Assembly: GCA_034521595.1 (NCBI GenBank)
Contig: JAXHMG010000003.1
Location: forward strand, 1,504,001-1,568,000
From: Gemmatimonadota bacterium
GTDB lineage: Bacteria; Gemmatimonadota; Gemmatimonadetes; Longimicrobiales; Gaopeijiaceae
Direction of reading: 5' to 3'
Length of the DNA: 64,000 nucleotides
A program made the position numbers and the translations under genes. This document shows positions 1 through 20,380 of this stretch, one piece after another. The notes beneath the pieces were generated by a model. The model searched no databases and had not been told where the DNA came from. It worked only from the letters and a program-made list of their open reading frames with translations. The first letter of the stretch is position 1; the number at the start of each line of letters is the position of its first letter.

Positions 1-5
1 GGCGA

Positions 6-924: not shown

Positions 925-1085
925 CGTGGCCCGGGTGAGCGCAAGAAAACCAGCGCTACTCCCAACAAGCTTCCCGTGCCTCAAGATCAAGACCAGCCGA
1001 TCGAGGATACGCTGCCTCGCGTCCGCTCTGGGCCATGTGGGGGAAGCGAACGAAGTGAGCGGAGCCGGAAACATACTTGTTATGT
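925..1085 (-). repeat. Truncated attC-like site (distal end of the array; outer R' arm missing)
   Basis: GGCCATGTGG...GAACGAAGTGAGCGGAGCCGGAAACATACTTGTTATGTG is nearly identical to the right half of the 13131-13286 repeat. The inner-stem partner CGTGGCC is at 925-931, but the CATAACGTTCAGATGTTTCCG arm is absent. Confidence 0.75.
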
Positions 1086-1294
1086 GATGGGTGCCGCTGT
1101 CCGTCGACATCAGTCACGTCTTGGGGTCAGTCCGCTCTTGCCATGGATCCTTCGCCGCGTCCATGATGCTCGGGTGAAGATCAAAGACATTATCCGTGTC
1201 AACGCCGGTTCAGAAGTGGACAGATCCGACGGAGTAGAGTTTGACACTTCCGGGTCGGGTTGGTTGGTCATCGGGGCATGAGGTTTCTCCTGGC

Positions 1295-4687: not shown

Positions 4688-4840
4688 ACATAACGTTCAG
4701 ACGTTTCCGACGTGGCCACCACGGAAGCGCCCACGCTACCTACCCGAGCATACGCTGCGATCTGCTCTCGTGCCACAAAACTCCGAGGCCATGTAGGTGA
4801 AGAGAGCGAAGCGAACGGAACCGGAAACGTTCTGTCATGC
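4688..4840 (-). repeat. attC-like recombination site (R'' degenerate)
   Basis: On the + strand: ACATAAC-GTTCAG-ACGTTTCCG-ACGTGGCC...GGCCATGT...CGGAAACGT-TCT-GTCATGC; nested inverted repeats shared with other copies. Confidence 0.85.
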
Positions 4841-4844
4841 AGAC

Positions 4845-5576
4845 GCTCTGGGCCCCGCTGTGCTGAGGAACCGTGGGAGTCTAGTACACCTGCGCTGTCT
4901 GGCCTTACGGGGAGAGTATCGAGCCCCGATGGTCCGGATGAATCGATCGGCGAAGTCCCCAATTCCACCGGCTCGCCAAGGTTGCCAAGCCCGTCGCTGT
5001 GTCTTCCAGCTAAGGCAAACGCTGTGATGGGAATGGCCAGCGTGAGCATAACGATTCCGTTGCGCACCCCGGAGAAGCTGACCGAAAGAGCGTTTGACCG
5101 AAGATTTGTCACTTTCTGATTCTGTTCAACATAGTAGAGTCGCCTCGCTCGCGCCCTCGATTCCATCCTTAATGACGATCTCTTCGTTGAGCGCAGGTTG
5201 ATACGTCCGAGCGACTTTCATTGCCTCCAACGCCCACCAGCCAGCTGCCAGCAGGTAGATCGCGCCCAGATAGCAGGACCACGGCGACAGCCACCGCTCG
5301 GCGATCACTCGGAAGACCGAAGAAGTTGACGCTGGCAGACAAGATCGCGAAGGAAAGAGTCACCCCAATGATGTTGCTCTTAGCCTTGTCTTCGATGGAT
5401 CGTCGCCGTTCCAGCTCAATACCTTCAAAGAATCGGAGGCGGTCCTCATCGACCGCACTCGCCGTCTGTCGAAGCTCCTTCAGGTGGCAGGAGAACGCGT
5501 CGTCTCGATCCTCCAAGTCCTTAAGGATGGCTTTCCGAGCATTTCTAGCGGCCGGGATATCCAACAGAAAGCACAC
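4845..5576 (-). CDS. Hypothetical membrane protein downstream of the ATP-grasp gene (frameshifted; ends approximate)
   Basis: Consecutive ORF fragments 5169-5576, 5126-5308 and 4669-5166 with ERRRSIEDKAKS followed by three hydrophobic segments. Confidence 0.55.
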
Positions 5577-5620
5577 GGCTCATGCGAGTCACCATCGAGG
5601 AGAGCCGTCCCCCACGGTGA

Positions 5621-6567
5621 TTATCCACGAATGAGAGCTCGTGCCAGAGTCAGGGATATCTCAAGGTCGAGAGCGGACTCCAGCCACACCCACTCTCCGA
5701 GAGGGTTGACCTCCAAGAAGAGGTATTCGCCGTCCCGCTCCATCAGGTCTATCGCCCCATATATCGAGCCCCAGGCGGTCCATCAGTCGAAGGCATCCAT
5801 CGACGACTTCGGTAGGCAATGTGGTCAGTCTATAAGACACGTCACCCTTGCGGAGCCGCCAGTCGCCGTCAATCGACTCGCCGTTGTCCGTGATCGCCAC
5901 CGCCCACCAGGTTGAGCCCACGATCGTAAGGCGAACGTCCACCTTTGGCTGGACACCTTCCTGTAGGACGTACGGCATCTACCGAGTTGCGGGCCTGAGC
6001 CTTGAATGCTTCAGCGCTCATCAGTGTCGTGTAGCCGAAATGGACGTCCGCATCGTCCTCCCAGAGCACGGTGTCCAATCCCTTTACGGCTACGCGCCCG
6101 GCACCAGGAAAGTGGTCAAACGGCCAGTTGCCGATTCTCGTCCATGGGATTTGCAGCCCGGCCTCAACCGCGACCGCGAGCTGCTCAAGCTTGTCGTTCG
6201 GATCTGTAGATCGCGAACGGAGAGTTGATCCAATGCCCACCTGCGGCGACCAATGAGCGGAGCATCGTCTCCCAATGGAGATGTCTCAACTGACTCGGCC
6301 CGGGACTCCCATGCGTTCGAACATACGCAGGCCGCTTGCAGTAGACGGAGTGAGGACCGGACACCGTGAAGGCCTGTCCTGAGGACTCACCGAAGATTGT
6401 CTTGGCTACCGGGTCGACGCTGATCCGGACCGGAGATCCTCGGTATTCAGTCGTTGGTAGGAGGCGTCTAGGTCACGAAGGTGCCCAACGACCAAGTCAG
6501 CGCCGAAATCGAATCGCGACGTGATCAGCAGGATCGTGGGAGCCGAAGAGGAAATGTCGTTACTCAA
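5621..6567 (-). CDS. ATP-grasp RiPP maturase (MvdC/MvdD-like), frameshifted
   Basis: TTG start overlaps the precursor stop; ILLITSRFDFGAD...RLNTED, KLEQLAVAVEAGLQIPWT, VAVKGL, PYVLQE, DVRLTIVG, DWR, FLEVNPLGEWVWLE motifs. Confidence 0.85.
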
Positions 6568-6776
6568 TATCCCTTCTGGTCCTCTCCGGTTTCGACGTCG
6601 TTCTTCTTCGTCTGGGGGCGGGGGCCTTCCGGCCGCCTCATCAGCAGTTCTCCCGATTCCGAGTGAACCCACGCGCCGATCTTCGGGTCATATGCTGCCC
6701 CCCTAGGTGTGGGATCGGATGCGGGGCGCGAGTTCCTGACTGCTCCTGCTATCAGCATGTGCTTAGACAGTTGCAT
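6564..6776 (-). CDS. Graspetide (omega-ester peptide) precursor, 70 aa
   Basis: RBS GGAGGA; C-terminal core PQTKKNDVETGEDQKGY rich in T/K/D/E; lies directly upstream of the ATP-grasp gene. Confidence 0.85.
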   Translation of the reverse strand: MQLSKHMLIAGAVRNSRPASDPTPRGAAYDPKIGAWVHSESGELLMRRPEGPRPQTKKNDVETGEDQKGY

Positions 6777-6983
6777 CGATCCTCCAGGACGTGATGACAT
6801 ACGACAAGACATGGGGCGGCACGAACACTATCCGTTTCTCTACAACAAGAGGGGTCCAGAGTGTCTCATAGACACGATGGAAGGGCTGGCCTCCTGGTTT
6901 TTTCGTGGATTAGCATCCCGAAGTAGCCCGGAGTGCCAGAGCCACCTGCGGCGTTCGAGCCGCACAGCCCAGGAGACCAGCCC

Positions 6984-8125
6984 ATGTCTGCGCCAATCTT
7001 CTTCGTCGGCCTCGACGTGCACAAGGACACGGTGACGGTCGCGGTGTTTCGCAACCGCGATGTGGAGCCGATGCGGGTCGATCGACTTCCCCACGACCAC
7101 AAGAAGCTGCGTCGCTACTTCCAGCGTCTCGAGGCCGAGGGCTCGAGTCCGAGCCTGCTACGAAGCCTCCGGGGCGGGCTACGTGCTGCAGCGCGCGCTC
7201 ACCGAGTGGGGCATCGCCTGCGAGCTCGCCGCTCCGTCCCTCATTCCGAGGCGAGCGCGGTGAGCACCGCAAGACCGATCGACGCGATGCGATCGAGATC
7301 GCCCGGGACTTTCGCGACGATCGCCGCGTGCTCATCCACATCCCCACCGAAGCCGACGAGCGCGTCCGCGACTTGGTGCGCTGCCGCGAGACCTTCCAGC
7401 GCGAGATCGTCAAGTCACGCCATTACATCCTGAAGTTCCTGCGCCGCCGAGGCTTCATCTACCGCGACGGCACGCACTGGACCACGCGCCACATGAACTG
7501 GATCCGACAGGTGCTCGAGCCCGGCACCCTCGCCGAGGAGGACGGCGTCGTGCTCGCCGAGTACCTTGCGCTCCTCGAGTACGAGTTGCAGCGCAGAGAC
7601 GAGCTCGACCGCAGGATCGAGGCCCTGGCGCTCACGCCCCGCTACAAGCCCCTCGTCGACCGTATCCGCTGCTTCCGGGGCTTCAAGACCCAGGCGGCCA
7701 TGGTGCTCGCCACCGAGATCGGCGACGTGCGTCGCTTCGAGAGTCCGCGCCAGCTCATGGCCTATCTCGGACTCGTGCCCGGCGAGAACTCCTCGGGCGA
7801 TCGAAGGCGACTCGGGGCCATCACCAAAGCCGGCAACGCACGCGTGCGTCATGTGCTCATCCAGGCCGCCTGGCAGTACCGACGACGGCCTGCCGTCGGT
7901 GTCACCCTCCGGCGTCGTCAGCAAGGTCAGGACCCGGCCGTCATCGCCCATGCCTGGAAGTGTCAGGACCGTCTCTACAAGGTCTTCCACCGCCTGGCCG
8001 CCAAGAAGCCCAAGCCCGTCGCCGCCACGGCCGTCGCACGTGAGATGGTCGGCTTCCTGTGGGCCGTGCTCAACGACATCGATGTCGCCCAACTCCAGGA
8101 CGCGGAGGTGAGCCGAGCCGCCTGA
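6984..8125 (+). CDS. IS110 transposase/recombinase (indels near 7145 and 7257)
   Basis: VGLDVHKD, CYEASG, KTDRRDA, YLGLVPGENSSG, ITKAGN motifs. Confidence 0.92.
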
Positions 8126-8340
8126 CCCCGATCCTGACACTTCACGTCCGGAAGGAGAGCGCCCGGGGCACGATAGGAGAACGCCTCGAAACGTTATGGG
8201 GTCCGGCTCCGTGCCCAATCCCCGCACATAGACTCCGGCCAGCTCCCGACGAATCCGTCTCATGATGCTCTGAGCCTCAACGCTCAACCATCGAATATCA
8301 GCAGGATGCATCGTCGAAGACGCCCCGGCCTCTCCTTCGG
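8126..8340 (+). ncRNA. Putative bridge/seek RNA of the IS110 element
   Basis: Non-coding 3' end containing ATATCAG (8295-8301, equal to the right end plus core) and CATCGT (8309-8314, reverse complement of left-end ACGATG at 6874-6879). Confidence 0.6.
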
Positions 8341-8421
8341 ACCGCGACTTGACAACACCCTTCCATATCAGGCGACCGGAACCGGGGCGTCCGTGGGCGT
8401 GGTGCGCCGGACCCGGAGCTC

Positions 8422-8793
8422 GTGGAGCGCCCTCGGCGTCGTACGTTCACGGCGGCCTACAAGCTCAAGATCGTGCAGGAAGCGGACGCGTGCGAGAAGC
8501 GGGGCGAGGTGGGCGCGTTGCTGCGTCGTGAGGGGCTCTACACGTCCCACCTCTCGGCGTGGCGCAAGGAGCGCGACAAGGGAGCGCTCCAGGCGCTGTC
8601 GAAGCCTCGGGGTCGGCCGAAGCCGGATCCACGCGACGGCGAGATCGAGCGGCTGCGCCGGCGTGCGGAGCGAGCCGAAGCCGAGCTGGCCACGGCCCAC
8701 AAGGTCATCGAGGTGCAGGGAAACGTCTCGGCGCTCTTGGAAGAGCTGCTCCAGGCTGGGGGCGCGAAGCAGAACGGGAGCAGCGAGCGGTGA
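8422..8793 (+). CDS. IS3 OrfA (HTH)
   Basis: RRRTFTAAYKLKIVQEADAC...GALLRREGLYTSHLSAWR. Confidence 0.88.
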   Translation: MERPRRRTFTAAYKLKIVQEADACEKRGEVGALLRREGLYTSHLSAWRKERDKGALQALSKPRGRPKPDPRDGEIERLRRRAERAEAELATAHKVIEVQGNVSALLEELLQAGGAKQNGSSER

Positions 8794-9794
8794 CGGAGCA
8801 GGCCGTGGAAGAGCTCACGCCACTGATCGGGACGAGTCCGGCGTGCCGGGCCCTCGGGACGGCACGGGCGACGATCTACCGGCGTCGGCGTCCACCCGAG
8901 CCCCGGCCCCGGAAGCCTCGGCCGAAGCCGGCGCGGGCGCTCTCGGAACAGGAGCGCGACGCGGTGCTCGAAGCGCTGCACTCCGAGCGCTTCGTCGATG
9001 CCTCACCGGCACAGGTCTGGGCCACGCTGCTCGATGAAGGCCGTTACCTGGCGTCGGAGCGCACGATGTACCGCCTCCTGGCCGAGCAGAGCGGGAGCCG
9101 GGAGCGGCGCGACCAGTTGGTCCATCCGGCCTATGCCAAGCCGGAGTTGCTGGCCACGCGGCCCAACGAGCTCTGGAGCTGGGACATCACCAAGCTCCTG
9201 GGGCCGGCCAAGTGGACCTACTTCTACCTCTACGTCATCCTGGACGTCTTCAGCCGCTACGTCGTGGGCTGGACGATCCAGCACCGTGAGTCGGCCTCCG
9301 TGGCCCAGCAGCTCATCGCCCAGAGCATCGAGCAGCAGGACGTCGGGGCCGGCGAGCTCACGATCCACGCCGACCGCGGCACCTCGATGCGCTCGAAGCC
9401 GGTCGCGTTCCTGCTCGCCGACCTCGGCGTCACGAAGACGCACTCGAGGCCCTACACCTCGACGGACAACCCCTACTCCGAGGCCCAGTTCAAGACGCTC
9501 AAGTACCGGCCCGACTTCCCCCACCGCTTCGCCTCGATCCTGCACGCGAGGTCCTGGGCCCGGGGCTTCTTCGCCTGGTACAACCATGAGCACCGCCACT
9601 CCGGCCTTGGCCTCATGACCCCGACCACGGTCCACTACGGCCGGGCCGACGAGGTCAGGGAACAGCGTGGTGAGGTGCTCGAGGCCGCCTACGCGGCCAA
9701 CCCCGAACGCTTCGTGCGCGGGCTACCCCAGCCGCCCAAGTCGCCCACCGCAGCTTGGATCAACCCACCCGCCACCGAGGAGGATGCTCACTAA
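8790..9794 (+). CDS. IS3 OrfB DDE transposase
   Basis: WSWDITKL, IHADRG, DNPYSEAQFKTLK; GTGA overlap with orfA. Confidence 0.92.
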   Translation: MTEQAVEELTPLIGTSPACRALGTARATIYRRRRPPEPRPRKPRPKPARALSEQERDAVLEALHSERFVDASPAQVWATLLDEGRYLASERTMYRLLAEQSGSRERRDQLVHPAYAKPELLATRPNELWSWDITKLLGPAKWTYFYLYVILDVFSRYVVGWTIQHRESASVAQQLIAQSIEQQDVGAGELTIHADRGTSMRSKPVAFLLADLGVTKTHSRPYTSTDNPYSEAQFKTLKYRPDFPHRFASILHARSWARGFFAWYNHEHRHSGLGLMTPTTVHYGRADEVREQRGEVLEAAYAANPERFVRGLPQPPKSPTAAWINPPATEEDAH

Positions 9795-9836
9795 TATCAG
9801 ACCACCTTCTGTCTCATCGGCGTTGACAGGTTCCGC

Positions 9837-9957
9837 TTCACGCTAGATACGTACGGATGCTTCGGCCCAGAACTGAAACAGAAAAAGCGACGGGCCGCGC
9901 CCGCCGCCACCCTATCCGTCCGCGGTCTTGCTTCGGTCCTTCTTAATGGTGTTATGA
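9837..9957 (-). repeat. Remnant of an attC site disrupted by IS3/IS110
   Basis: GTTATGAGTCGTTGCAGGC at 9951 is an inverted match to GCCTGCAATGACTCATAAC at 11010-11028; the remainder differs from the main attC family. Confidence 0.5.
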
Positions 9958-9979
9958 GTCGTTGCAGGCACGGTCGTCG

Positions 9980-10937
9980 TCACCGTACCGCTACCCCTTC
10001 TTTGGCTCGTTGGTCGTATACTGTCCCACGATCGACGGCACCTCTCCTGGTACGGCGCTCCAGATCCTCCCCTTCGCTCGATCAGGTCTGAGAACAGGGC
10101 AACTGTGTCGAGATGAATACCTCTTTCGCTCTCCTCCTTACGGCGGCTAAGCCAATTACCTTCTCCTGGCCCTCCGTGCGATAGCGTTCAATCGCATCGG
10201 GTGACTAGCTGATCGGCAGGATCGGAGCTTCGGCTCTGCAGGGACTCCCGAAGTTTGTGATGCACGACGGCCAGCCCGGCAACGTACTCACGGATCAGCG
10301 GTACTCAGATCGACCACCTCCCCAAGATCGGCCAGTTCATCGAGAACGTTCGACTGAAGCCTCCATCCTCCCGGAGACGCTCGGTATCGATGCTCGGTAC
10401 TATTGCATTTCGGCGGGTCGAGCCTTCTTCAAGTCGGTCGCGCCAGAACTGATGGGACATGCGCACCGCACCGCAACTCCCCGGGTGCTGCGTGTAGTTC
10501 CGAAGGGCCTCCATCGCCCGGTATCCGAGACGGGAGTCATACTCGATGGATCGCCATGCGTTGAACCGGGCAAGACCGGTCCGAGTCTTTGCCGAATCGG
10601 CAGCTGAGTAGGTGACGGCGCCTGATCCAGGTATCCTCTTCCACCCGAAAGGAGGTTCACGACTCTTCGGTCGACATCGTGGATGGTTCCGACCGCACTC
10701 GGACCAAGACCCCTCTGTACAGAGGAGTGAATACAACGCCCGATCGAGCAGGGCACCTTCGTACTCATAGAAGTTTGCCAGGACGAGATGGAAGCCTTCT
10801 TCCAAAGCGAGGGCGTCCACCAGTAGACCCTTGGCGTCCTTCAGCTCCTGGAAGTCGCTCCGATCAAGCGGGAGGAATGGTGTCTTCCCGAAGACGGCGA
10901 TCTGACCAGAGCCGTGTCCGACCTGATCATCGTTCAT
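9980..10937 (-). CDS. Cassette gene, hypothetical protein with HEPN-like RxxxxH motif (frameshifted; end approximate)
   Basis: Helical protein with RVVNLLSGGRGYLDQ and YRAMEALRNYTQH. Confidence 0.55.
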
Positions 10938-11021
10938 ACGGAAATCTGGATTGCTGCGTTTACCAAGAGAGAAGAGGAGGGACACCCCCCCGACGTCGCG
11001 CGAGATCCAGCCTGCAATGAC

Positions 11022-11143
11022 TCATAACGAATCAGGGGTTTCCGAACTTGCGGCCTGGCGCGGCTCGTCGCGCTCGCACGAGACGTGACAGGGCGGAAGT
11101 CAGGCCGGAGGGGCCCCGGAGCCGGGAACCCTCACAGTGGAGG
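11022..11143 (-). repeat. attC-like site, divergent member (R'' degenerate)
   Basis: TCATAAC-GAATCA-GGGGTTTCCG...GGCCTG...CAGGCC...GGAGC-CGGGAACCC-TCACA-GTGGAGG; same architecture as the others. Confidence 0.7.
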
Positions 11144-11169
11144 GCTGAAATCGCGCCCCGACCCGTGAC

Positions 11170-11905
11170 CATCCGTCCTATCGGGACCCATCCCAAGTGC
11201 GGGCTTTACGGATGCGCGTTCGAATCCTTCTCGGCAGTAGCGGGTCTCCCGCATCCAACCGGTACTTTCGCGAAAGTAATTCTCAGCGACGTTCTCCTGC
11301 CTTGCCTGCTTCCCCCAGTCGCACCAAAACAGGAGACAAACGATCTAAGATCCGGATGTCTCCCGAGATACCTCGTCTCCACGCAACTCTTGGAGGAGCT
11401 CACCGACAAAACCCTCCCTCCCGCTGTATCCCCGCATACTCATCAATCGTCCTGCAGAGCCTCTTCTATGTACATCCGAGCTGCCGCACGCACACTCCGT
11501 CTTCTCTAGAGACTTCGCCCGATCAGCAGCAGCGCTGAGACTCATTTCTCAGCTTCCAGAATCTTTGGTTAGCTTCATAGTCTATCACCCTCCCGAAATT
11601 GATCCAGTTTACCAAACTCTCATTTTCCCGCGCCATCCAGCGGGCCTCAAGGTCCTCTGCACCTTCCTCATCGAGATCGTCAGCCAAGATGAGAACCTTG
11701 TACTCGTCGTCGAGATGCCTCTTCACGTAGAATTCCCAGAGCTCATGCCCATTCTTCTCCCACGCACGGCGCCCCTTGCCCTTCCCGACGTAGAAGATCT
11801 CGCCATCGCGATCCACATGCGCGTACACGTAGAACCGACGCGGATTCGTTCGATCGGCCTCGTCGGATGGTGTCAGCCTCTGAGGCGAAGTGGAGTCACT
11901 GAGTG
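11170..11905 (-). CDS. GIY-YIG nuclease domain protein with helical C-terminus (frameshifted; ends approximate)
   Basis: FYVYAHVDRDGEIFYVGKGKGRRAW...AEDLEARWM...LVNWIN. Confidence 0.8.
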
Positions 11906-11980
11906 ACAGAGCGATACCGCGATTGGTAAAATGAAACAGCAGCTCGTTATGTGGCGTGCTGCACTTGGTCCATGACGCCA

Positions 11981-12700
11981 CTACTGCTCGGGGTAAACAC
12001 CCAACAACGCGGCGACGCTTGCTTTCCACTCCTCTCGGCACCCCCTCATCGCGACAGTAGCTCCGAAAGCGACTTCAATTTGTGTTGAAGAGGGGTGAAC
12101 GAGGTTCGCTCGACGTTGAATATCGGTGACCGCCTCTAGATCAGCGCTGAACCCAGTCGATGGACAGTACGCGATCCTCACCGGTTTCGATGAGGTGGTA
12201 CCTTCTGGAAACGACCGCCCTTCGCTCTGTCTACAATCAGCAGAGGACCACGAGGCCGACGCCCTTCTACGTCTGCGGCGGCGAGCAACGCGGTTCCCAT
12301 CACGGGAACTAAGGTCATGAGGCCCAACCGGAGATAGATCGGGGTCATCTGCCGATGCTCCATCGAAGACCTCCTTCGGGTAGCATCCAGTAACATCCGC
12401 CATCTCCCCTTCGGGGATGGCCGCTCGGGCGAACCGACCGCCTGCCGCCGGCCAGGCGTCTGATTAGAGCGATCGCAATCGCCGCGCAACGATCCAGATT
12501 CTCTTCAGGATAGTCACTGACGACGAGGAAGCCGTCGCCAAACTGATGCGCGAAGAGCCGCTCCCGTTCCTTCGGAAACACACGACGACCGATGCGGGCG
12601 ATGGCAGCCATGAGTTCGCCAATCGCCTGCACGTGGTCCCGCGACGATCGCTGCTTGAAGCCCTGAACGTCGATGTACAGTGACGATCGGTCGTCAGCGG
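11981..12700 (-). CDS. Class III nucleotidyl-cyclase-like protein (frameshifted; start approximate)
   Basis: LYIDVQGF, HQFGDGFLVVS, ARAAI-EGEMADV, VMGTALL resemble the metal-binding and core motifs of the cyclase fold. Confidence 0.55.
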
Positions 12701-13069
12701 AAGCAACCGTCGCTCCGAAAGGAGAGCCTCTCCGCCCTTTGCCACTGATCTCGCTCGCCAAACCCATCCTGTGGAGAGCCAGAAGCAGAACCGTGCAATT
12801 GCAGTTGTGGCCTCTCTGGCTGCGGTACCGAACACCTCGGGCGACATACTCCTTGAGATCCGTGGTCGCGGACGTACCGTCCGGCGGAATGCTGAAACGC
12901 ATGATAGAGAGCTTCCACACCAACGTAGAACCGCGAGTGGCCACGTTGGTAGCAGAGCCGTCGGTCGTCGGACGAGACGATCTTGGTGGTGCCGCCGCCT
13001 GGATTCTCAAGGAGCGTGCCCTGGGGGCACGCTGTCGCCCAGCCTGTGCGAGAACTGAGTAAAATCCAT
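12694..13069 (-). CDS. Small hypothetical protein with GHNCNCT motif (frameshifted)
   Basis: Reconstructed across indels: MDFTQFSHRL...NPGGGTTKIV...CYQRGHSRFYV...TTDLKEY...GHNCNCTVLLLALHRMGL...GRRGSPF. Confidence 0.5.
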
Positions 13070-13130
13070 GGAGATCGGCGCCGCCTCCCGATAGAGCTTC
13101 CAACTCACGGCACCTCGTTCCTAGCATGCC

Positions 13131-13286
13131 ACATAACGTTCAGATGTTTCCGACGTGGCCACAGCATATGCGCTCATCTTTCCTGGGCCTTCGGAGTGCA
13201 GCTGACAGCATACGATATCAGCACGTTCGAGGCCATGTAGGTCGGAGCGAACGAAGTGAGCGGAGCCGGAAACATTCTTGTTATGT
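13131..13286 (-). repeat. Intact attC-like site
   Basis: ACATAAC / GTTATGT perfect R pair; ATGTTTCCG / CGGAAACAT; ACGTGGCC / GGCCATGT. Confidence 0.92.
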
Positions 13287-13335
13287 GATGGCCTTTCGCT
13301 GTTTCCCTACACCGATTCGCACTCTTGGGCAGCGG

Positions 13336-14533
13336 TCAGCTTCGGGCAAGTTCGTAGATCCGAGCGTACTCGACCTCAAGTTCGTCCCGCCAGACCCCGA
13401 CCACTTGGTCCCCCAGGATCTGAGTCGGGCGGAGCCGCTGATCGGGAAACTCGACGGTGCCGAGCCAGACTCCTTCACGATCGAAGACAGCCCAAGAACG
13501 AGCATCACCATCGTACGAAAAGTCCTGGACCCAAAGGAACCCCTCACTGTCGACAAGGAACCTCGAGTAGGCCGGTCGGCTCTGAGGTTGCGGCTGCTCT
13601 TGGTAACGGGCCCGAAGACCAGGTCGAGCGCCTTCTGGAGCTGCGAGCACTCGTGCCTCAACAGCGGCGTCGTAGGACACCTCATCCAATCGGACGTCGA
13701 CATCCGATCTGCGGATCAGACTTCGGAGGATACCGTCCTCAGAATAGACGCCGATCTGGTATGCATCTTGAGAACCCTGAAGGATCTCCTCACCCCGGAC
13801 TGCGTGACTCACCGACCGGGCCAAGAGAGGACGGAGCATCTCCACAGTCTGAGGGCCGTACATCAGGATCCGTTCCGAGCCCGGAGTCACGAGGACCGTG
13901 TCTTCCAGCGCTCCGGAGTGGGTCGATCCGGACGTAGGCTGCTCCGAACCTAGTCGGAGACCGGCGGGCAACTCGTCGATGATCGCCGACGAGAATGCGA
14001 GGTGCGCGGCCGGCGCGACGAGCCCCCGCGACGAGCCGACCGGACCAAGTCCTGCGTCGTCCACCGCAGCCCGGGCAACCCGAAACGGTCCGCTCTCGGG
14101 ATCCAAGACCGTGATCCTCTGCTGCGCGCCCGTCGAAGTCCCAGAGCGAGTCGGCGTTCAGCCCGATGGAAGGTCAGGCCCTGAAATTCCCCGGGCCCTT
14201 CGCCTGACCGACCGAACACGGAGATAGGGTTGCCAAGCAGGTTAAAAAGCTTGACCTGGCTGGCACCTTCGTCGAGCACGGCGATCCTCTCGCCGTGAGA
14301 ACGAAGACGCCCGAGAGCCGGTCGAACGCCGCATCGCCGTCCAGGCTACCCAGGCTCAGAACCGGATCCTGAGATACCTGCCATACCTCATGATCATTCC
14401 AAGCGGGACGACTGTTCTGCACGATCCGAATGCCGGCGCTGTCTTGGACGGCAACTGCAACGGGAGGAACTTCGTCAGACCCGCAGGCCGTGCAGATCAG
14501 AAGACAACCCAAGAGCGCTAGTCTCACCCGCAC
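13336..14533 (-). CDS. 6-bladed beta-propeller lipoprotein (frameshifted), cassette gene
   Basis: RBS GGAGGAG just after the GTT core; lipobox ICTAC; GRSGEGPGEF; WAVFDREGVWLGTV; GVWRDELEVEY. Confidence 0.8.
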
Positions 14534-14561
14534 GTTCTCCTCCGTCCAAAGAATGGCTTTC

Positions 14562-14721
14562 ACATAACGTTCAGATGTTGCCGACGTGGCCCACCACCGC
14601 TCCCTCCGGAGCCGGCCACCCGTCATGAATACGGCTTAGGCGCTCAACCCGCCACACCCGTTCCGGGCCATGTAGGCCGGAGCGCCCGCAGGGCGCGGAG
14701 CCGGCAACATACTTGTTAGCA
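14562..14721 (-). repeat. Intact attC-like site
   Basis: ACATAAC...ATGTTGCCG-ACGTGGCCC...GGGCCATGT...CGGCAACAT-ACTT-GTTAGCA. Confidence 0.92.
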
Positions 14722-15179
14722 GATGTTGGCTTCCTGTGGTCCACGCCACACTTACGGTTGACTTCACGAGGGACGTCGCGTCGACGGCTATCCGTCCCGG
14801 TGGTTCGACCTGAAACGGAAACCCCGCGGACACACGGTCGAGGGATCGCGCGAAGGAAGCCCAAGGAGCGAGCAGACCGAAGGTGTGGCCCCAGTCGACC
14901 GATGATGCCTCGGAGCGGGTCAACGCGCGATTCACCAAAACCTCTTTGGCGCCGTCGACGAAGAACCCGCCGGGTGGACATCGCAGTCGTGGATCGAGCC
15001 CGCCCGACCGTGTGGAGCCACACGGGGGGAGGGACAGCGGCGAATCCATAGGGTGGTGGGCGTGACTCGAGCCGAAGGTGCGAACCCCAGTCGACCGTAG
15101 ATGCCTGGGAGGATGTCAACGCACGAGGAGTTGAAGGCGTCGCCGCTGTCCTCGAACCTGACCGTCCATGGCCAATGTC

Positions 15180-15198
15180 CGCTAACTGGTTGTTGCCG
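15180..15198 (-). other. attI-like simple site at the head of the array
   Basis: Minus strand CGGCAAC-AACCA-GTTAGCG (inverse core, 5-bp spacer, core) with no attC hairpin upstream; GTTAGCGGACATTGGC matches GTTAGCAGATGTTGGC at 14715. Confidence 0.65.
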
Positions 15199-15472
15199 CA
15201 GAAGTGTGTCGCTTCTGCTCCTCGTCCTAGGCGGGATTCCCGACGTTGAGGATCTGGGGCTGGAGCGTCTGAGTAAGTTACCTCCGGTCTCCGCAACGTT
15301 CGCTCCCCCTCGGCGGAGCGCAAGGTAATCGCTCGGCGAAGGATCCGGGTGAGTCGGCGGGCGAGTCACGGCCTCCATCCGGTCGGCTGACGGTGGACTG
15401 GACCACGACCACACGTACGTCGAGACCTTTCAGTCGGCTGCATACGTGGACCGACCGTCGGTCGTCACGTTG

Positions 15473-16144
15473 TCACCCCCTGTCCTGGGTCCTTGAGCAC
15501 CCGTTCCGCCGGCCCCACTCGTCCACCAGCTCGGGGTTCGCTTCCGCATGACGCAGTGCTGCCGCGATCGGCAGCCCCTTCGAGACGTGCAAGCTGATGA
15601 CGAACTGCCACATCGCCGTCGCGAGGAGCATCGCCCCGTCGTCCTGATCGTTTGTGCCGGTTCGGCCTGGTACAGCCCGAAGTGCTTCATGAGCTGCTCG
15701 CCGTGCTCGGACTTGTCTTCGAACTGGAGGACGAAGTTGCCATGCATGTCCCATTTCCAGCCCTTCACCAGCCGCTGGAGGTCATCGGGAAGGGCGAGCA
15801 GATCCTCGGGCCGTTTAGCTCGTAGGCCCCGAACTCAGCGAGGTTGGCGAACGCCACCGCTGAGACCTCGTCGATCACGCGTTCCGCTGCGGTCCGCCTG
15901 GTTTCCTCAGCTCGACGCGGCGGGCGGCAAGATACGCCTGAACCTCTGGCTCCTTCAGGAGCTGGCGCGCATTCGTGGCGGCGTCCTTCCCCTTTGCCTT
16001 GAACCCCGACGCCTCGTACGCCACCCGGTGCCCCTTCCCTTCCAGGATGCCCTCACAGAACGCGATCCGTTCCGCGCTGAGCTCGCCGTCCTGAGCCTTC
16101 CCGCGTGGCCGGGCACGCCGGACCGCAGTGCCGTTACCAGCCAT
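15473..16144 (-). CDS. Phage terminase small subunit-like protein (frameshifted)
   Basis: RBS AGGAGA; ERIAFCEGILEGK...AYEASGF...AATNARQLLKEPEVQAYL HTH, then LPDDLQRLVKGWKW...EDK...LMKHFGLY typical of TerS. Confidence 0.7.
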
Positions 16145-16324
16145 GAGTCTCCTTCTCGGCACGGCCCATCGAGCCGCGCCCAAAATGGGGTGAGAACGGA
16201 GTGAGTTTGGCTTCGCTGGGGCAGCGGATCCAGGTTTCCGGACTTCGCCATCGGTACCGGAAAGGCATGAAACGACAAGACTTCCGGCACGCCGACAGCG
16301 AAATGCCGTACCCCCGCTGGCGGC

Positions 16325-16362
16325 TTTTAAGTCCCCTGCGTATACCATTTCGCCACCCCGGC
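16325..16362 (-). tRNA. tRNA-Leu(TAA) 5' half only (probable att junction)
   Basis: GCCGGGGTGGCGAAATGGTATACGCAGGGGACTTAAAA gives the acceptor 5' strand, D arm and anticodon loop; no 3' half seen in the window. Confidence 0.8.
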
Positions 16363-16500
16363 GCAAGCGTCTCGCAAGCTATGCTCCTCTCCCCCACCAC
16401 GGGAAGTCCGGCTCGACGCCCGGTGTACCGTCGGCGTCCTACCGGGCCGGGGGCCACACGGCACGGATGCGTCGTCTCATGGACGACGTCAGGTTCACGC

Positions 16501-17262
16501 TCAGGGCCGGCGGCGCAGGACCCAGATCTCCAACAGCGACCACTCCTCGCCGGGATAGTTCTCCTGCTCCAGCTGCGACATACGGCGGTGACGGGTGGCC
16601 GTGCTGCCCACGAAATCCAGCCGCTCCAGGAGGATGCGCTTGGTCTCGTCGGCCTTCTCCAGGCTGAAGGGGTTGAGGAAGTTCACCAGCATGTAGCCCT
16701 CGCGCGGGGCGCGGGCGAAGGCGTCGACCAGGCCCTTGATGACATCGGTCTCGAGATAGACCAGCGAGGCGGTGGAGATCACCACGTCAGCGTTCTCCAT
16801 GGCGCTGTCCACGGACCGCTTCGCCTCAGGCGAAGGGGCGTTGAGATCGGCGACCACGGTGTCGTCGAACAGGCCGGAGCGCTGGCCGTAGGCCATGGCG
16901 TTGCCGGAGATGTCGATGCCGGTGGTATGGGCCGGGAAGCGGCGGTCGGCCTCGATGGTCCGGCAGGCCTCGGCATCGCGCCAGTTGTGGCGGATGGCCT
17001 CGTAGTCCATGCCGTAGACGGTGGCCATGGTGGTGTTGCCGAAGCAGGCGCACAGGTCGACGTAGTTGACGGTCTCGCCGCGCTCCGCCTTTGCCTGCAC
17101 CCAGGGCAGGATCAGGCGGTCGAACATCTGGCGGTTGAAATCGTCCGAGATGTAGTCCAGCGCGTCCAGGATGCGCTCCTTGAAGGGCACCGGAGTCTCG
17201 GCGACGTAGATGTCGTCGAAATGCTGCTTCTTCTCGTCGGTTCTGATGCTGCTCTGGCTCAT
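16501..17262 (-). CDS. SAM-dependent methyltransferase-like protein
   Basis: FDDIY, YVDLCACFG, TGIDISGNAMAY, ADLN, ISTASLVY motifs. Confidence 0.65.
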   Translation of the reverse strand: MSQSSIRTDEKKQHFDDIYVAETPVPFKERILDALDYISDDFNRQMFDRLILPWVQAKAERGETVNYVDLCACFGNTTMATVYGMDYEAIRHNWRDAEACRTIEADRRFPAHTTGIDISGNAMAYGQRSGLFDDTVVADLNAPSPEAKRSVDSAMENADVVISTASLVYLETDVIKGLVDAFARAPREGYMLVNFLNPFSLEKADETKRILLERLDFVGSTATRHRRMSQLEQENYPGEEWSLLEIWVLRRRP

Positions 17263-17474
17263 CTTTCGTCTCTGCTTGCTGTGAAGTAGCGCGCTCTTTC
17301 GGTTCCCGCTTCGGCGGAAGCATCTCCCTATGTTAATGGTTTCCCCGTCTCTCGGCATTCGCACCCCCTCCCTGCTGGTGCTCACCGCGGGGCCGGCGCA
17401 TGCCGGCGGTCCCGGTCTGCCGAGCTCGCGGCCGATCGCATCACGACCGTGTCTCCCTGCGCTGTAGGCTGGGG

Positions 17475-17528
17475 TTGCATCTTCAGCGTGTTACCAGTAT
17501 ATATCGTGTATCGACGATCAACGATATA
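17475..17528 (+). promoter_or_regulatory. Sigma70-like promoter overlapped by a putative ArsR operator
   Basis: TTGCAT-17 bp-TATATA; inverted repeat TATATCGT (17500-17507) / ACGATATA (17521-17528). Confidence 0.7.
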
Positions 17529-17540
17529 GGAGCACCTGTG

Positions 17541-17942
17541 ATGCCAGTTGTAGCCGAGACGCAGTCCTTGCCCTTGGACGCACCAGCCGCCGAGCCGGCG
17601 TCCGGTGCAGAGATCGCCGCGATCGCCAAGGCGCTAGGCCATCCGGCCCGGATTCACATCGTGCGGTTGTTGCTGGAGGAGCCCTGCGTCGGCCGCGAGA
17701 TCGTGGGCGAGGTGGGGCTGGCGCAGTCCACGGTTTCCGAGCATCTGCGCATTCTCAAAGCAGCCGGCATCATCATGGGCGAAATCGAACATCCGCGAGT
17801 CTGCTACTCCCTCAATCCCGACAGCGTGGCTCCGCTGGCGGGACTGCTGAGCGCGGTGTTTGAGAAGGACAACCGTTGCGAAGTCGACGATGCCGACTGC
17901 TGCCCACCTGCGGGCTGCGAATCCACGAACACCTCTTGCTGA
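17541..17942 (+). CDS. arsR: ArsR/SmtB family repressor
   Basis: AKALGHPARIHI, LAQSTVSEHLRILK, C-terminal CC..C. Confidence 0.9.
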   Translation: MPVVAETQSLPLDAPAAEPASGAEIAAIAKALGHPARIHIVRLLLEEPCVGREIVGEVGLAQSTVSEHLRILKAAGIIMGEIEHPRVCYSLNPDSVAPLAGLLSAVFEKDNRCEVDDADCCPPAGCESTNTSC

Positions 17943-17956
17943 TGAGGAGCGCTCTC

Positions 17957-18562
17957 ATGCCTACAGTCACGATTTATGATCCACCCATGTGTTGCTCGAC
18001 GGGCGTCTGCGGCCCCGAGGTCGATCCGAAGCTGGTGCAATTCGCCGGTGACCTCGACTGGCTGAAGGCCCGGGGCGTCGAGGTCCGGCGCGTGAATCTC
18101 GCGCAGGAGCCCGACCGCTTCGTCGCGAACCCCACGGTCAAGGCGATCCTCGATCGCTCGGGAGACGATGAGCTGCCGGTAGTCGTCGTGGGTGACGAGT
18201 TGATGGCGAGCGGGCGGTACCCCAGCCGCGACGAGCTCGCCGAGAGCACGGGCGTCGGAGTCGAGCCTCCGGCCGAAGAAGTGACCGACGGGGTCAAAGA
18301 GCTCATCGCCATCGGCGCCGCCATCGGCGCAAGCTGTGAGCCCTGTTTCAAGTTTCACTACGACAAGGCTCGAAAGCTGGGCGTCTCCGTCGAGGCCATG
18401 CGCGAGGCCGTCCGGGTCGGCGACGCCGTCAAGGCTGCGTCGGCCAAGAACATGCTCGGACTCGCCGACCGGATCCTCGGCGCCGAAGAGCCCGAAGCGG
18501 CCGCCAGCGCCTGCTGCGGCGACGCCGACGAGCCCCAGGAGAAAGCCTCCGGCTGCTGTTGA
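17957..18562 (+). CDS. arsD: Arsenite metallochaperone ArsD fused to a CMD/AhpD-like domain
   Basis: IYDPPMCCSTGVCG...YPSRDEL, then KELIAIGAAIGASCEPCFKFH. Confidence 0.9.
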   Translation: MPTVTIYDPPMCCSTGVCGPEVDPKLVQFAGDLDWLKARGVEVRRVNLAQEPDRFVANPTVKAILDRSGDDELPVVVVGDELMASGRYPSRDELAESTGVGVEPPAEEVTDGVKELIAIGAAIGASCEPCFKFHYDKARKLGVSVEAMREAVRVGDAVKAASAKNMLGLADRILGAEEPEAAASACCGDADEPQEKASGCC

Positions 18563-18610
18563 TCGCCGCCCGAGCGCTACGCATACCTTATAGAAAGAAG
18601 GAAGCACACC

Positions 18611-20380
18611 GTGTTCAACGATCTACCCAAGTTCGTCTTCTTCACCGGTAAGGGCGGGGTCGGCAAGACGTCGCTGGCATGCGCCACGGCCGTCAGCCTG
18701 GCCGACCGCGACAAAAAGGTCCTGCTCGTCAGCACCGACCCGGCCTCCAACGTCGGGCAGGTATTCGATACGGAGATCGGCAACCGCATGGTGCCCGTCT
18801 CGGGCGTGCCGGGGCTCGACGCCATCGAGATCAACCCCGAGGAAGCGGCCGCCGACTACCGGGAGCGGATCGTCGGCCCCATGCGTGACGTGCTCCCGGA
18901 GAACGCGCTCAAGAGCATCGAGGAACAGCTCTCCGGCGCCTGCACCACGGAGATCGCCGCTTTCGACGAGTTCACGGGCCTCCTGACGCATCAGGAGCGC
19001 ATCGAAGGCTACGACCACGTCCTCTTCGATACGGCTCCGACGGGCCACACGATTCGCCTGCTCCAACTGCCCGGAGCCTGGTCGGGCTTCCTCGAGGAGG
19101 GGAAGGGCGACGCCTCCTGCCTCGGTCCGCTGGCCGGCCTGGAGAAGCAGCGCGAGCGGTACGCGGCAGCGGTGGCGCGCCTTTCCGACGGCGACAGCAC
19201 GCGTCTCGTCCTCGTGGCTCGCCCGCGCCCATCGGCCCTCGCCGAGGCCGCGCGGGCGTCACGCGAGCTGGCGGCCATCGGCATCCGGAACCAGCAGCTC
19301 GCCATCAACGGGCTGATGCCCGAGGACGTCGAGGGCGACCCGCTGGCCACGGCGCTGGCCGAGCGGGACCGGACGGCATTGGCCGAGATGGACGCGGACC
19401 TCGAGGACCTTCCCCGCGTGACGGTCCCCCTCCGGTCGGAGAACCTCATGGGTGTCCAGGCGCTTCGCCGGTTCGCCGAGGGCGCCCCGGATACCGACGG
19501 CGCTCCCGTCCCGGACCCGTCGGCTCAGGACGAGCTACCCGATCTCGAATCGCTCCTCGACGAGGTGGAAAAGCCCGGCAAAGGGCTCCTCATGTTCATG
19601 GGCAAGGGCGGCGTGGGGAAGACGACCATGGCCGCGGCCTTCGCGGCCGACCTCGCGGCCCGGGGGCACGAGGTGCTGCTGACCACCACGGATCCCGCCG
19701 CGCACCTGGTGGAAACGCTGGGAGGAGAGGTCCCGGGCCTCACCGTCAGCCGGATCGATCCGGCCGAGGAGACGCAGCGCTACCGGGACCGCGTGCTCAA
19801 AACCAAGGGCGAGGGCTTGGACGCGGAGGCGCGGGCCATGCTGGAAGAGGATCTGCGCTCTCCGTGCACGGAGGAGATCGCCGTGTTCCAGGCGTTCTCC
19901 AAGGTCATCCGGGAAAGCAGCCGGCGCTTCGTGGTGATGGATACGGCGCCCACGGGGCACACGTTGCTGTTGCTGGACGCCACCGGATCCTATCACCGCG
20001 ACGTCCTTCGGCACATGGCACCGGACCAGGAAGGTCACGTCACCACGCCGATGATGCAGCTTCAAGACCCGAGCCAGACGAAGATCTTCATCGTGACGCT
20101 GCCCGAGACGACACCCGTCGTGGAAGCGGCGCACCTACAGGAGGATCTCCGACGCGCGGGCATCGAGCCCTGGGGCTGGATCATCAACGCGAGCCTCGCG
20201 GCGGCGCGGACCCAGCATCCCCTGCTCCTCCGCCGGGCTGCCTCGGAGTACACGCAGGTCGCCAAGGTGCGCGACGAATTGGCGTCACGACACGCCGTCG
20301 TGCCCATGCAGGCCGAAGAGCCGGTGGGCCGCGAGCACCTCATGGCCCTGGGCCGGCCGATGACGCCTTCGGAGGTGTGA
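18611..20380 (+). CDS. arsA: Arsenical pump-driving ATPase
   Basis: Two GKGGVGKT and two DTAPTGH motifs; GACTTEIA, SCLGP, SPCTEEIA cysteines. Confidence 0.97.
   Translation: MFNDLPKFVFFTGKGGVGKTSLACATAVSLADRDKKVLLVSTDPASNVGQVFDTEIGNRMVPVSGVPGLDAIEINPEEAAADYRERIVGPMRDVLPENALKSIEEQLSGACTTEIAAFDEFTGLLTHQERIEGYDHVLFDTAPTGHTIRLLQLPGAWSGFLEEGKGDASCLGPLAGLEKQRERYAAAVARLSDGDSTRLVLVARPRPSALAEAARASRELAAIGIRNQQLAINGLMPEDVEGDPLATALAERDRTALAEMDADLEDLPRVTVPLRSENLMGVQALRRFAEGAPDTDGAPVPDPSAQDELPDLESLLDEVEKPGKGLLMFMGKGGVGKTTMAAAFAADLAARGHEVLLTTTDPAAHLVETLGGEVPGLTVSRIDPAEETQRYRDRVLKTKGEGLDAEARAMLEEDLRSPCTEEIAVFQAFSKVIRESSRRFVVMDTAPTGHTLLLLDATGSYHRDVLRHMAPDQEGHVTTPMMQLQDPSQTKIFIVTLPETTPVVEAAHLQEDLRRAGIEPWGWIINASLAAARTQHPLLLRRAASEYTQVAKVRDELASRHAVVPMQAEEPVGREHLMALGRPMTPSEV

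Follow-up and report, generated by a model that had tools for sequence, protein, structure and literature searches.

How does a folded cassette site tell its recombinase which strand to use? Strand choice, and with it the orientation in which a cassette can be expressed, has so far been explained by extrahelical bases that are read by an insertion specific to IntI. We approached this question in a window of 64,000 nucleotides (nt) from a Gemmatimonadota bacterium, G000:C3:1504001-1568000 (forward strand of contig JAXHMG010000003.1, assembly GCA_034521595.1; G000 is the source genome, and C1 and C3 are its contigs). Coordinates given without a prefix are those of the window. Using a covariance model (R1), built with a three-way-junction structure from 16 copies of the source genome, and by reading positions 1-14900, we found five same-oriented copies of an attC-type site of about 160 nt, three of which are intact. 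The original prediction had described a branched attC family here; the strings that it quoted are all present at or near the places given for them, and the repeats do behave as attC-type cassette sites, forming arrays that adjoin a tyrosine recombinase and an attI-like junction. Our interpretation, which we would accept about as readily as reject, is that these are the attC-type sites of an integron-like system in which the three-way junction and a side arm mark the recombinogenic strand in place of extrahelical bases. Its best-supported part is that the strand asymmetry is built from the junction, a wobble pair and purine-only motifs, not from bulged bases. The natural system described here appears to do the same job without either the extrahelical bases or the insertion, and so offers a testable contrast for the strand-selection problem.

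Anatomy and covariation of the three-way junction

One of the intact copies has the following parts:

13129-13287, + strand (= bottom strand): intact three-way-junction attC-type site, R1 score 151.9 bits
13130-13137, +: R′ box CACATAAC, with a probable crossover after ...ATAA, the side being taken from duplicated cassettes
13138-13143 (5′ half, 6 nt) and 13276-13279 (3′ half, 4 nt), +: central spacer, unpaired
13144-13152 and 13267-13275, +: L stem, L′ ATGTTTCCG and L″ CGGAAACAT, without a bulged base
13153-13160 and 13231-13238, +: inner stem, 5′ arm ACGTGGCC and 3′ arm GGCCATGT, containing a G.T wobble
13161-13230, +: variable region inside the inner stem, a branch resembling a variable terminal structure (VTS), C-rich on the + strand
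13240-13267, +: side arm, with a GG(T)C base, a GGA/GGA purine internal loop, a GC-GA-AC stem and a GAA triloop
13247-13261, +: core hairpin of the side arm, GC-GA-AC-GAA-GT-GA-GC
13280-13287, +: R″ box GTTATGTG

Along the + strand, the family folds in the order R box (ATAAC/GTTAT), asymmetric unpaired spacer, unbroken L stem of 8-11 base pairs (bp) and three-way junction. The asymmetry of the spacer is general, with 5-7 nt on the 5′ side vs. 2-4 nt on the 3′ side. Branch 1, the inner stem, has the base ACGY.../...RTGT with the G.T wobble and closes a loop that measures 4 nt in short sites (about 95 nt) and about 80 variable nt in long ones (150-170 nt). These variable inserts (e.g., 13161-13230 and 14592-14665) belong to a few subfamilies that are common to distant positions and genomes. 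Branch 2, the side arm, consists of a base of 3 bp that may include one bulged nucleotide, a 3 × 3 internal loop (5′-GNA/5′-GNA), a stem of 5-8 bp that is either entirely Watson-Crick or contains tandem G.A/A.G pairs, and a triloop. Its 3′ strand passes into L″ with 0 unpaired nt, as at 13267-13275 in the site listed above, and 1-4 unpaired nt, usually T/A-rich, lie between the two branches.

As in canonical attC sites (59-base elements; the Vibrio cholerae repeat, VCR; attC-aadA7), the R boxes form an inverted repeat with 5′-AAC-3′ in R′ and GTT in R″ (the window reads CACATAAC...GTTATGTG), the L″/L′ stem is set off from the R box by an unpaired spacer, and the distal part is variable. Also shared with them are promoterless cassettes that each carry a single site on their 3′ side, arrays that start at attI, and, on the bottom strand, G.T pairs, purine loops and a GAA-type triloop. 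In contrast to canonical sites, those studied here have no extrahelical bases in the L stem, their spacer is asymmetric, and they carry a discrete, covarying hairpin arm with a GNA/GNA internal loop that lies flush with L″. Large chromosomal attCs such as VCR can be branched as well (PMC5027507, PMC2727003); here, the branch point is fixed at the end of the L stem and not far out in the VTS.

Folding of single sequences was noisy. The two strands of two sites gave −29.1 vs. −26.2 and −38.6 vs. −41.6 kcal/mol, which does not separate them, and we therefore turned to covariation. For the side arm, a minimum-energy fold of the site interior broke the tandem-G.A arms, and a permissive, mismatch-tolerant arm scorer, which chose spurious long pairings, performed no better than shuffles (only 23 of 197 sites exceeded the 95th percentile). 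Applied to the 16 copies of the source genome, RNAalifold returned three helices, namely the L stem, an 8-bp inner stem and a third helix that is paired at its base (GGY/RCC) and at its tip. In this alignment 90.3% of the cells were paired vs. 86.6 ± 0.7 in shuffles (0 of 500 as high) and at most 46% in slid registers, and seven pairs had changed on both sides. The inner stem, which had been predicted as CGTGGCC/GGCCATG, exists and is paired in all 16 sites; it comprises 8 bp (ACGTGGCC/GGCCATGT), is invariant within the genome and covaries only between genomes, so that this part of the description had to be amended.

A second alignment, made with MAFFT, independent of the model and with no rows dropped, took in every unique short site (50, from about 20 genomes). 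Here, 82.4% of the cells were paired vs. 71.2 ± 0.6 in shuffles, 21 of the 34 pairs had changed on both sides, and double changes amounted to 217 cells vs. 83.8 in shuffles. The covariation score was 0.304, compared with 0.129 ± 0.008 in shuffles (0 of 500 as high) and at most 0.083 in slid registers; the number of further pair types was no better than in shuffles (53 vs. 54.2). The L helix was paired in 94.2% of its cells, with both sides changed in seven of eight pairs; L-stem covariation, a claim of the original prediction, held both within the genome and across the 43 of 151 related genomes that carry such sites. The R-box pairs C-G, A-T, A-T and T-A were found in 47, 44, 47 and 42 of the 50 sites, respectively, and the G.T wobble of the inner stem was retained in 37. 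In the side arm, the following pairs were recorded (numbered by the columns of this alignment, A7):

Side-arm pair 63-94: CG in 41, UA in 7, UG in 1
Side-arm pair 68-89: CG in 26, UA in 21
Side-arm pair 71-86: GC in 30, AU in 11, CG in 5
Side-arm closing pair 72-85: CG in 40 of 50

The tandem positions of the arm's stem that count as unpaired were G.A in 41 and A.G in 39 of the 50 sites, being replaced by G-C in eight and C-G in six. In the internal loop, G.A was present in 47 and A.G in 44, and the middle position was free. Relatedness of the sequences inflates covariation statistics; the slid-register control and the 72 distinct hairpin sequences described below argue that the pairing is real despite this inflation.

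Cassette polarity and the strand-specific side arm

Three independent observations point to the + strand as the bottom strand, as had been predicted: the direction of the open reading frames (ORFs), the position of the recombinase and attI, and the behavior of duplicated cassettes. The longest ORF lies opposite the model strand in 82 of 110 cassettes from six genomes, including all but one of the frames of at least 300 amino acids (aa). The recombinase gene (C3:34262-35458, −), the only IntI-like gene of the source genome, flanks the main array on its right and is transcribed towards it. Between its stop codon and the first cassette there is an attI-like ...CCCATAAC junction followed by non-attC sequence. 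The layout is that expected for attC, every cassette having a single site on its 3′ side and the array being headed by attI and an integrase gene. The candidate attI, L009:14022-14258 (= G000:C3:34022-34258), lies directly downstream of the stop codon and reads ...CCCATAAC and then TGTTTATTTCCGA...; its TTTCCGA box is common with the L′ arm of the attC. The recombinase adjoins an array and reads towards it in four of the five relatives examined (G003, G072, G112 and G126), the gene and the arrays being on different contigs in the fifth (G069), and the coordinates in G085 and G104 give the same arrangement. Among 80 public loci around homologues, sites were found at 13, and all 26 of them lie downstream of the gene and on the opposite strand. 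The recombinase thus reads in the same direction as the cassettes, as in the 'reverse' integrons of spirochaetes, and archaeal attIs have been described immediately downstream of intI (PMC9668308).

For the third observation, we compared 26 pairs of duplicated cassettes (at least 85% identical, in different contexts; they stem from few cassette families, so the pairs are not independent). The site on the 5′ side, with respect to the model strand, was 91.9% identical on average vs. 68.5% for the one on the other side, and it was the more similar of the two in 25 of the 26 pairs. It follows that the site belonging to a cassette is the one downstream of its ORF and that the point of exchange falls within ATAAC, the 5′ box of the + strand. 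In canonical sites the extrahelical bases are on the bottom-strand arm opposite the AAC triplet (PMC5027507). Since the + strand is the bottom strand, the side arm sits on that same arm. The wobble pair and the purine loops also agree with published features of bottom strands, which are reported to have more G:T pairs (1.24 vs. 0.39), purine enrichment and a GAA tip (PMC5027507). The strand-specific motifs suggest that these sites may recombine as the folded bottom strand.

Side arms were counted in unique sites of at least 85 nt, the criterion being a hairpin with a cGNAg triloop and a stem of four or more stacked pairs at a distance of 25-60 nt from the 3′ end. Such a hairpin was present in 165 of 237 sites, with 72 distinct hairpin sequences, whereas it was found in five at the same place on the complement, in nine elsewhere on the same strand, and in a mean of 6.65 in 20 shuffles. 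The triloop was GCA in 68, GAA in 66, GTA in 23 and GGA in eight, and 31 of 41 genomes or records had at least one. Both the conservation of the arm in a larger alignment, whose failure the original prediction had named as its refutation, and its restriction to one strand are borne out by these counts, together with the covariation in the 50 short sites. On the + strand, the side-arm region is rich in purines (GC skew +0.19, AT skew +0.21) and the variable region in C (GC skew −0.27). The arm resembles the d(GCGAAGC) mini-hairpins in its c-GNA-g loop with a C-G closing pair, and the window even contains a literal GCGAAGC (4804-4814); in contrast to them, the motif forms part of a longer arm that also has a GNA/GNA internal loop and in many cases contains tandem G.A pairs. 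C-G-closed GNA triloops and GCGNAGC mini-hairpins have been described as unusually stable (PMC3201870, PMC13037366). The claim that the arm is stable rests on this work, and the nearest-neighbor DNA parameters do not reproduce it; the high stability predicted for the tandem-G.A versions was, in particular, not recovered. The non-Watson-Crick motifs and the wobble exist on the + strand only, and the complement therefore cannot build the same junction. That the side arm itself directs the choice of strand, or docks the N-terminal domain of the recombinase described below, would be a further step, to which we give at best an even chance and perhaps a little less.

The arm could instead do nothing but help the site to fold, as a fast-forming and very stable mini-hairpin that nucleates or locks the bottom-strand fold of long sites and prevents wrong pairing of their variable region with the L and R boxes, with no specific protein contact and no part in the strand decision. 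We regard this as unlikely, albeit worth serious consideration. The stability described for GNA triloops and GCGNAGC would suit such a role, as would the indirect action, through stabilization of the bottom strand, that has been ascribed to the unpaired central spacer and the VTS (PMC5027507), and an arm that varies over 72 hairpins fits a structural role better than a sequence that is read. However, the arm is equally conserved in the short sites, where hardly any variable sequence is available for mispairing, and the retention of the GNA/GNA loop sequence (47 and 44 of 50), as well as a position flush with L″, exceed what a clamp would need.

The topology may also be seen differently: because its 3′ strand enters L″ with no unpaired base, the side arm is perhaps the continuation of the main axis, and the variable hairpin the branch. 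Carried further, the site would derive from a short classical attC whose distal stem and GAA-type tip persist as the GNA arm, in coaxial continuation of the L stem, and the inner stem with its variable loop would be a hairpin inserted in the 5′, AAC-bearing arm. The mark of asymmetry would then be this insertion, with its conserved wobble and unpaired T/A-rich linker, instead of the GNA arm. In line with this, the 1-4 unpaired nt are found towards the variable hairpin; without that hairpin the site would measure about 70 nt and end in a GAA tip, as do attCs of mobile integrons with a conserved GAA VTS (PMC5027507); and the variable hairpin retains its base (ACGT.../...ATGT, with G.T) even at Paenibacillus, Clostridium, spirochaete and archaeal loci that have a different third arm. 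On the other hand, the mark would then be positioned opposite to the canonical extrahelical bases (PMC5027507), the variable hairpin itself meets L′ with 0-1 unpaired base, and coaxial stacking is not decidable from sequence alone. We consider this exchange of roles rather improbable and retain the reading in which the side arm, along with the junction, occupies the place of the extrahelical bases.

An insertion-less recombinase adjoining the arrays

Two or three extrahelical bases on the L″ arm are the attC trait that these sites lack. The L helix could be parsed in 197 of 242 unique sites (the 45 failures were mostly due to a mismatch or a missing end), and it is unbroken over at least 8 bp in 183 of them; the hairpin arm and the 1-4-nt linker occupy the place of the distal extrahelical base. 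The same parser was applied to 14 canonical attCs situated next to canonical IntI genes of relatives (three further copies were not delimitable), and it gave at most 6 bp in 12 and 8 bp in two.

The recombinase linked to the arrays has 399 aa with PF13495 and PF00589 domains (PF00589, E = 7e-43), and its catalytic residues R255, K280, H345, R348, H371 and Y380 are invariant in 31 sequences (alignment A8). Its score against TIGR02249 is 213.5 bits, below the cut-off of 265, in two pieces that leave model positions 174-234 unmatched, and no match above the cut-off was found anywhere in the source genome. The best solved relative is VchIntIA (2A3V, E = 6.4e-45); in the IntI-specific additional domain around patch III the recombinase has 25 residues vs. 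67 in VchIntIA, about 40 fewer. The enzyme that adjoins the sites is thus not a canonical IntI, the integrase named in the original prediction. A cognate enzyme without the IntI-specific insertion could not read extrahelical bases in the canonical manner. The insertion has been noted as 'not fully conserved' in an integron-like subgroup, and the passage in question does not describe the role of insertion-less members (PMC8138268).

The protein is like IntI in its SAM-like and catalytic domains and in the position of its gene at the head of a cassette array; unlike IntI, it lacks the insertion and has an additional N-terminal domain. With the Xer proteins (XerC/D and archaeal XerA) it shares the length of the catalytic region, and it matches Pyrococcus XerA (4A8E) end to end with 141.5 bits. 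In contrast to them, it falls below every Xer cut-off (XerA, 210.1 vs. 220; XerC, 192.8 vs. 335; XerD, 188.8 vs. 330) and adjoins cassette arrays, not dif. Besides the integron integrases, Xer, which acts on the folded single-stranded attP of the CTX phage, is given as the one tyrosine recombinase known to work on folded single strands (PMC5027507). Two other tyrosine-recombinase ORFs, of 316 and 309 aa, are present elsewhere in the source genome.

The N-terminal domain spans about 70 residues with the motif (I/V)PGRxW...R.AW..P and is followed by a variable, disordered linker in five array-linked orthologues; homologues from other phyla have the domain as well. Its AlphaFold/AF2 model has the order beta-beta-alpha-beta-beta-alpha-beta with a predicted local distance difference test score (pLDDT) of 93. 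When a profile of 15 sequences was compared with PDB, the best match was the HARP domain of SMARCAL1 (4O66, E = 0.0032). With this domain it shares a ...G.xW....k.W..P motif, and the predicted five-stranded sheet with two helices matches a published description of it (PMC4666394); unlike the SMARCAL1 HARP, it is fused to a tyrosine recombinase and not to an SNF2 motor. In Foldseek, archaeal XPB N-terminal domains and 4O66 appeared at E = 0.15-0.23 with template modeling (TM) scores of about 0.45. The HARP assignment is a weak lead, not an established identity. HARP domains have been implicated in the recognition of forked DNA (PMC4666394), a role that, by analogy, would suit the reading of a branched site.

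Taken in order, the mechanism that we envisage would begin with the + strand folding as single-stranded DNA into the three-way junction, which we infer to occur in vivo. The junction and side arm would then identify the strand to be recombined, as extrahelical bases do in canonical sites, the adjacent insertion-less recombinase would presumably recombine the sites, and its HARP-like N-terminal domain is a candidate reader of the branched DNA. In the literature covered, which did not extend to supplements and most subscription journals, we found no three-way-junction attC, no attC arm with a GNA triloop and no integron-type recombinase with a HARP domain; within the same coverage, neither attC-type sites without extrahelical bases nor their pairing with an insertion-less recombinase were found. 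Branched VTSs, GAA tips, the purine and G:T skew of bottom strands, reverse intI genes and attI sites downstream of intI are already known. The elements that were not found in the literature searched are the fixed, covarying GNA arm at the L-box junction, the absence of extrahelical bases, and the insertion-less recombinase with a HARP-like domain.

A genome search with R1 (E ≤ 0.01; 150 of 5875 first-look candidates scored) gave at least 29 sites in the source genome. About 20 form one main array, C3:1528-32695, and the others are in small groups at C3:1.01-1.03 Mb and on C1, with a few single ones; the spacers between sites of an array measure 0.2-2.4 kb, and the arrays adjoin the tyrosine recombinase and the attI-like junction. 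Among 151 related genomes (a set that takes in the unpublished genomes G110, G091 and G144), R1-type sites were detected in 43 (31 of 90 in family f1, 11 of 30 in f3 and 0 of 30 in f2) and a canonical IntI above the cut-off in 37. By our reading of the search output, full-length orthologues of the insertion-less recombinase are present in about 39. The orthologues are often at contig ends in fragmented assemblies, and metagenome homologues are on short contigs; we take the contig-end positions to reflect assemblies broken at repeats.

It would be conceivable that the neighboring insertion-less recombinase is not the enzyme of these sites. They would then be ordinary attCs of sedentary integrons whose VTS is branched and on which a canonical IntI, since lost from the source genome, acted in trans, and the arm would have arisen by lineage drift. 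Canonical IntI genes are indeed frequent among the relatives, 12 genomes have both such a gene and R1-type sites according to a hand comparison of the lists, and branched VTSs are known from large chromosomal attCs such as VCR (PMC2727003, PMC5027507). Nevertheless, in all the well-assembled cases that were examined (G000, G003, G072, G112, G126, G085, G104 and L074) the insertion-less recombinase lies directly beside the R1-type arrays, and G000 and G003, which have the largest arrays, have no canonical IntI. Moreover, four canonical IntI loci have their own arrays of ordinary bulged attCs, and R1 gave 0 matches in those 80 kb. Finally, the arm covaries, which drift does not produce. We therefore hold this explanation to be very improbable. 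Three canonical arrays of relatives, with bulged attCs of 86-120 nt, were delimited as follows:

L152:536-8685: canonical IntI array of G072
L153:11935-19407: canonical IntI array of G051
L154:14001-19377: canonical IntI array of G084

Both types of integron thus coexist in one chromosome in G072, whose canonical intI likewise reads towards its array.

The sites are strongly structured and lie between ORFs, as would an RNA element (a terminator, processing or regulatory hairpin) or a repetitive extragenic palindromic (REP) or miniature inverted-repeat transposable element (MITE)-type repeat unrelated to cassette recombination, but we rejected these readings, which we regard as scarcely credible, because the ORFs are on the other strand, so that the mRNA carries the pyrimidine complement without the motifs (5 of 237), no T-run was seen in the sequences read, no Rfam family matched at E ≤ 1 in window positions 1-17000, duplicated cassettes take one flanking site along, and the arrays start at the recombinase gene.

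Spread beyond the phylum and surroundings in the window

The closest homologues of the recombinase are from Gemmatimonadota, including Longimicrobiales, as judged from record titles. Beyond the phylum, R1 matches were observed downstream of homologues in metagenome-assembled genomes of Micrarchaeota, Thermoplasmata, Bacillota and Latescibacterota, in Brucepastera and other spirochaetes, and in Paenibacillus, Clostridium and Desulfitobacterium. The archaeal and Bacillota sites have an arm with the same base, GNA/GNA loop and stem; those of Paenibacillus and Clostridium keep the three-way layout with a different third arm; and spirochaete sites are more complex. In Brucepastera parasyntrophica (L139), the sites at 13129-13304, 16141-16311 and 18227-18394 of that locus have a GCGAACGAAGTGAGC-type hairpin and an additional arm, which suggests a four-way layout, and the neighboring recombinase matches the Gemmatimonadota query only from residue 112 on. 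Across phyla, no feature is retained more widely than the base of branch 1 and its G.T wobble, and the side arm is typical of part of the family, not universal.

Several results weigh against our interpretation. Regarding the fold, the minimum-energy structures of single window sites do not give the clean consensus junction. Regarding the arm, 72 of the 237 sites have other loops (AGA or AAA triloops, tetraloops or larger loops), and the cGNAg form occurs in just nine of the 40 sites of G072. The energies computed with nearest-neighbor parameters differ little between strands: the gap is −0.83 kcal/mol for whole sites, 148 of 237 favoring the + strand and 88 the other, and −0.78 kcal/mol for the arm, with the + strand better in 146 of 165, a weak preference, and the tandem-G.A arms of the window come out at about 0 kcal/mol. 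As to the enzyme, action in trans by canonical IntI is possible in the 12 genomes that have both site types or enzymes, and the Desulfitobacterium homologues lie beside simple hairpins without a side arm, from which it follows that the HARP-like domain does not require the arm. For that domain, Pfam HARP (PF07443) gave E = 0.0044 and 17 bits, below the cut-off of 25, in one of four orthologues, and Foldseek against PDB gave nothing at E ≤ 0.001, 4O66 being found at E = 0.23 with a TM score of 0.42-0.47.

On a broader scale, the sites and recombinases could represent a distinct and widespread class of integron-like platform, extending over Gemmatimonadota, Bacillota, spirochaetes, Latescibacterota and several archaeal lineages, in which the recombinase has given up the IntI insertion, its HARP-like domain reads the junction and the GNA arm is the strand handle; this is tentative, and we lean slightly against it. 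If true, standard integron finders that depend on the IntI-specific domain would list these arrays only as clusters of attC sites lacking an integrase (CALIN-like, integrase-less clusters) or miss them. Many arrays classed as integrase-less may then have a cognate, unrecognized recombinase, which would widen the taxonomic range of cassette platforms, and the site and its enzyme, as a new structure-specific recombination pair, could be of use as a tool.

The window itself is a detached array remnant, a cluster of sites without a recombinase of its own: the main array and its recombinase are 1.47 Mb away on the same contig, and window positions 14558-15186, comprising one site and the segment after it, are 93.5% identical by blastn to C3:31915-32543, the recombinase-proximal part of the main array. 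Its other four copies are:

14560-14722, +: intact site, R1 score 146.2 bits
14575-14583 and 14702-14710, +: L stem of that site
14584-14591 and 14666-14673, +: its inner stem
14675-14702, +: its side arm, with the core GCGCCC-GCA-GGGCGC at 14682-14696
14715-14722, +: its R″ box GTTAGCAG
4686-4841, +: site with L stem ACGTTTCCG/CGGAAACGT and an atypical R″ box, GTCATGCA; R1 score 137.7 bits
4796-4822, +: purine-rich side arm of that site, with the core GC-GAA-GC at 4804-4814
958-1086, +: 5′-truncated copy, R1 score 34.5 bits; the R′/L′ half is gone, and the 3′ arm of the inner stem, the side arm (1040-1066), L″ and R″ are retained
11022-11142, +: decayed copy, R1 score 24.3 bits, with no GTTAT end; the L stem GGGTTTCCG/CGGGAACCC is retained, and the tip and loop of the side arm have collapsed to GGGGCCCC

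The 12-nt start CATAACGTTCAG is exact at 4689, 13132 and 14563, and the remaining 23 of the 26 matches to it in the window (up to three mismatches) are at chance level, 22.4 being expected. A repeat search of the window recovered a common left half (47 nt) and right half (67 nt) of the sites.

The cassettes between the last two intact sites and on either side of them are:

12345-13127, −: cassette ORF of 260 aa, starting 3 nt after the R′ box of site 13129-13287; no Pfam family
13336-14626, −: cassette with two ORFs (13336-14106 and 14174-14626); no Pfam family
14723-15186, +: cassette-like segment found by blastn, with no further site after it

The product of ORF 14174-14626 has an N-terminus resembling a signal sequence or lipobox and, by eye, is like the first cassette protein of the main array. 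Pfam gave no family for the nine cassette ORFs of the window nor for that first cassette protein. The last cassette-like segment contains a 42-nt direct repeat (14889-14930 and 15085-15126; 83% identical, 196 nt apart).

Between the cassette sites lie genes for an IS110-family transposase domain (7328-8125; PF02371, E = 1e-20) and an rve-type integrase-core transposase (8559-9794; PF00665, E = 5.5e-22), and the array of the window is thus broken up by insertion sequences. A 2.4-kb segment (1194-3613) is 89% identical to G000:C3:18830-21200, within the main cassette array, and looks like a mobile element inserted in both arrays; an IS21-like identity was considered for it and dropped after the three ORFs tried gave no Pfam match. 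Just past the array, the genes at 17400-17942 (ArsR-family regulator) and 18611-20380 (ArsA anion-transporting ATPase; PF02374, E = 1.5e-99) make the region 17400-20380 look like an arsenic-resistance cluster. Further on, a 300-nt direct repeat unrelated to the cassette sites is present at 27943-28301 and 37063-37421 (99% identical, spacing 9120 nt), followed by an identical 28-mer.

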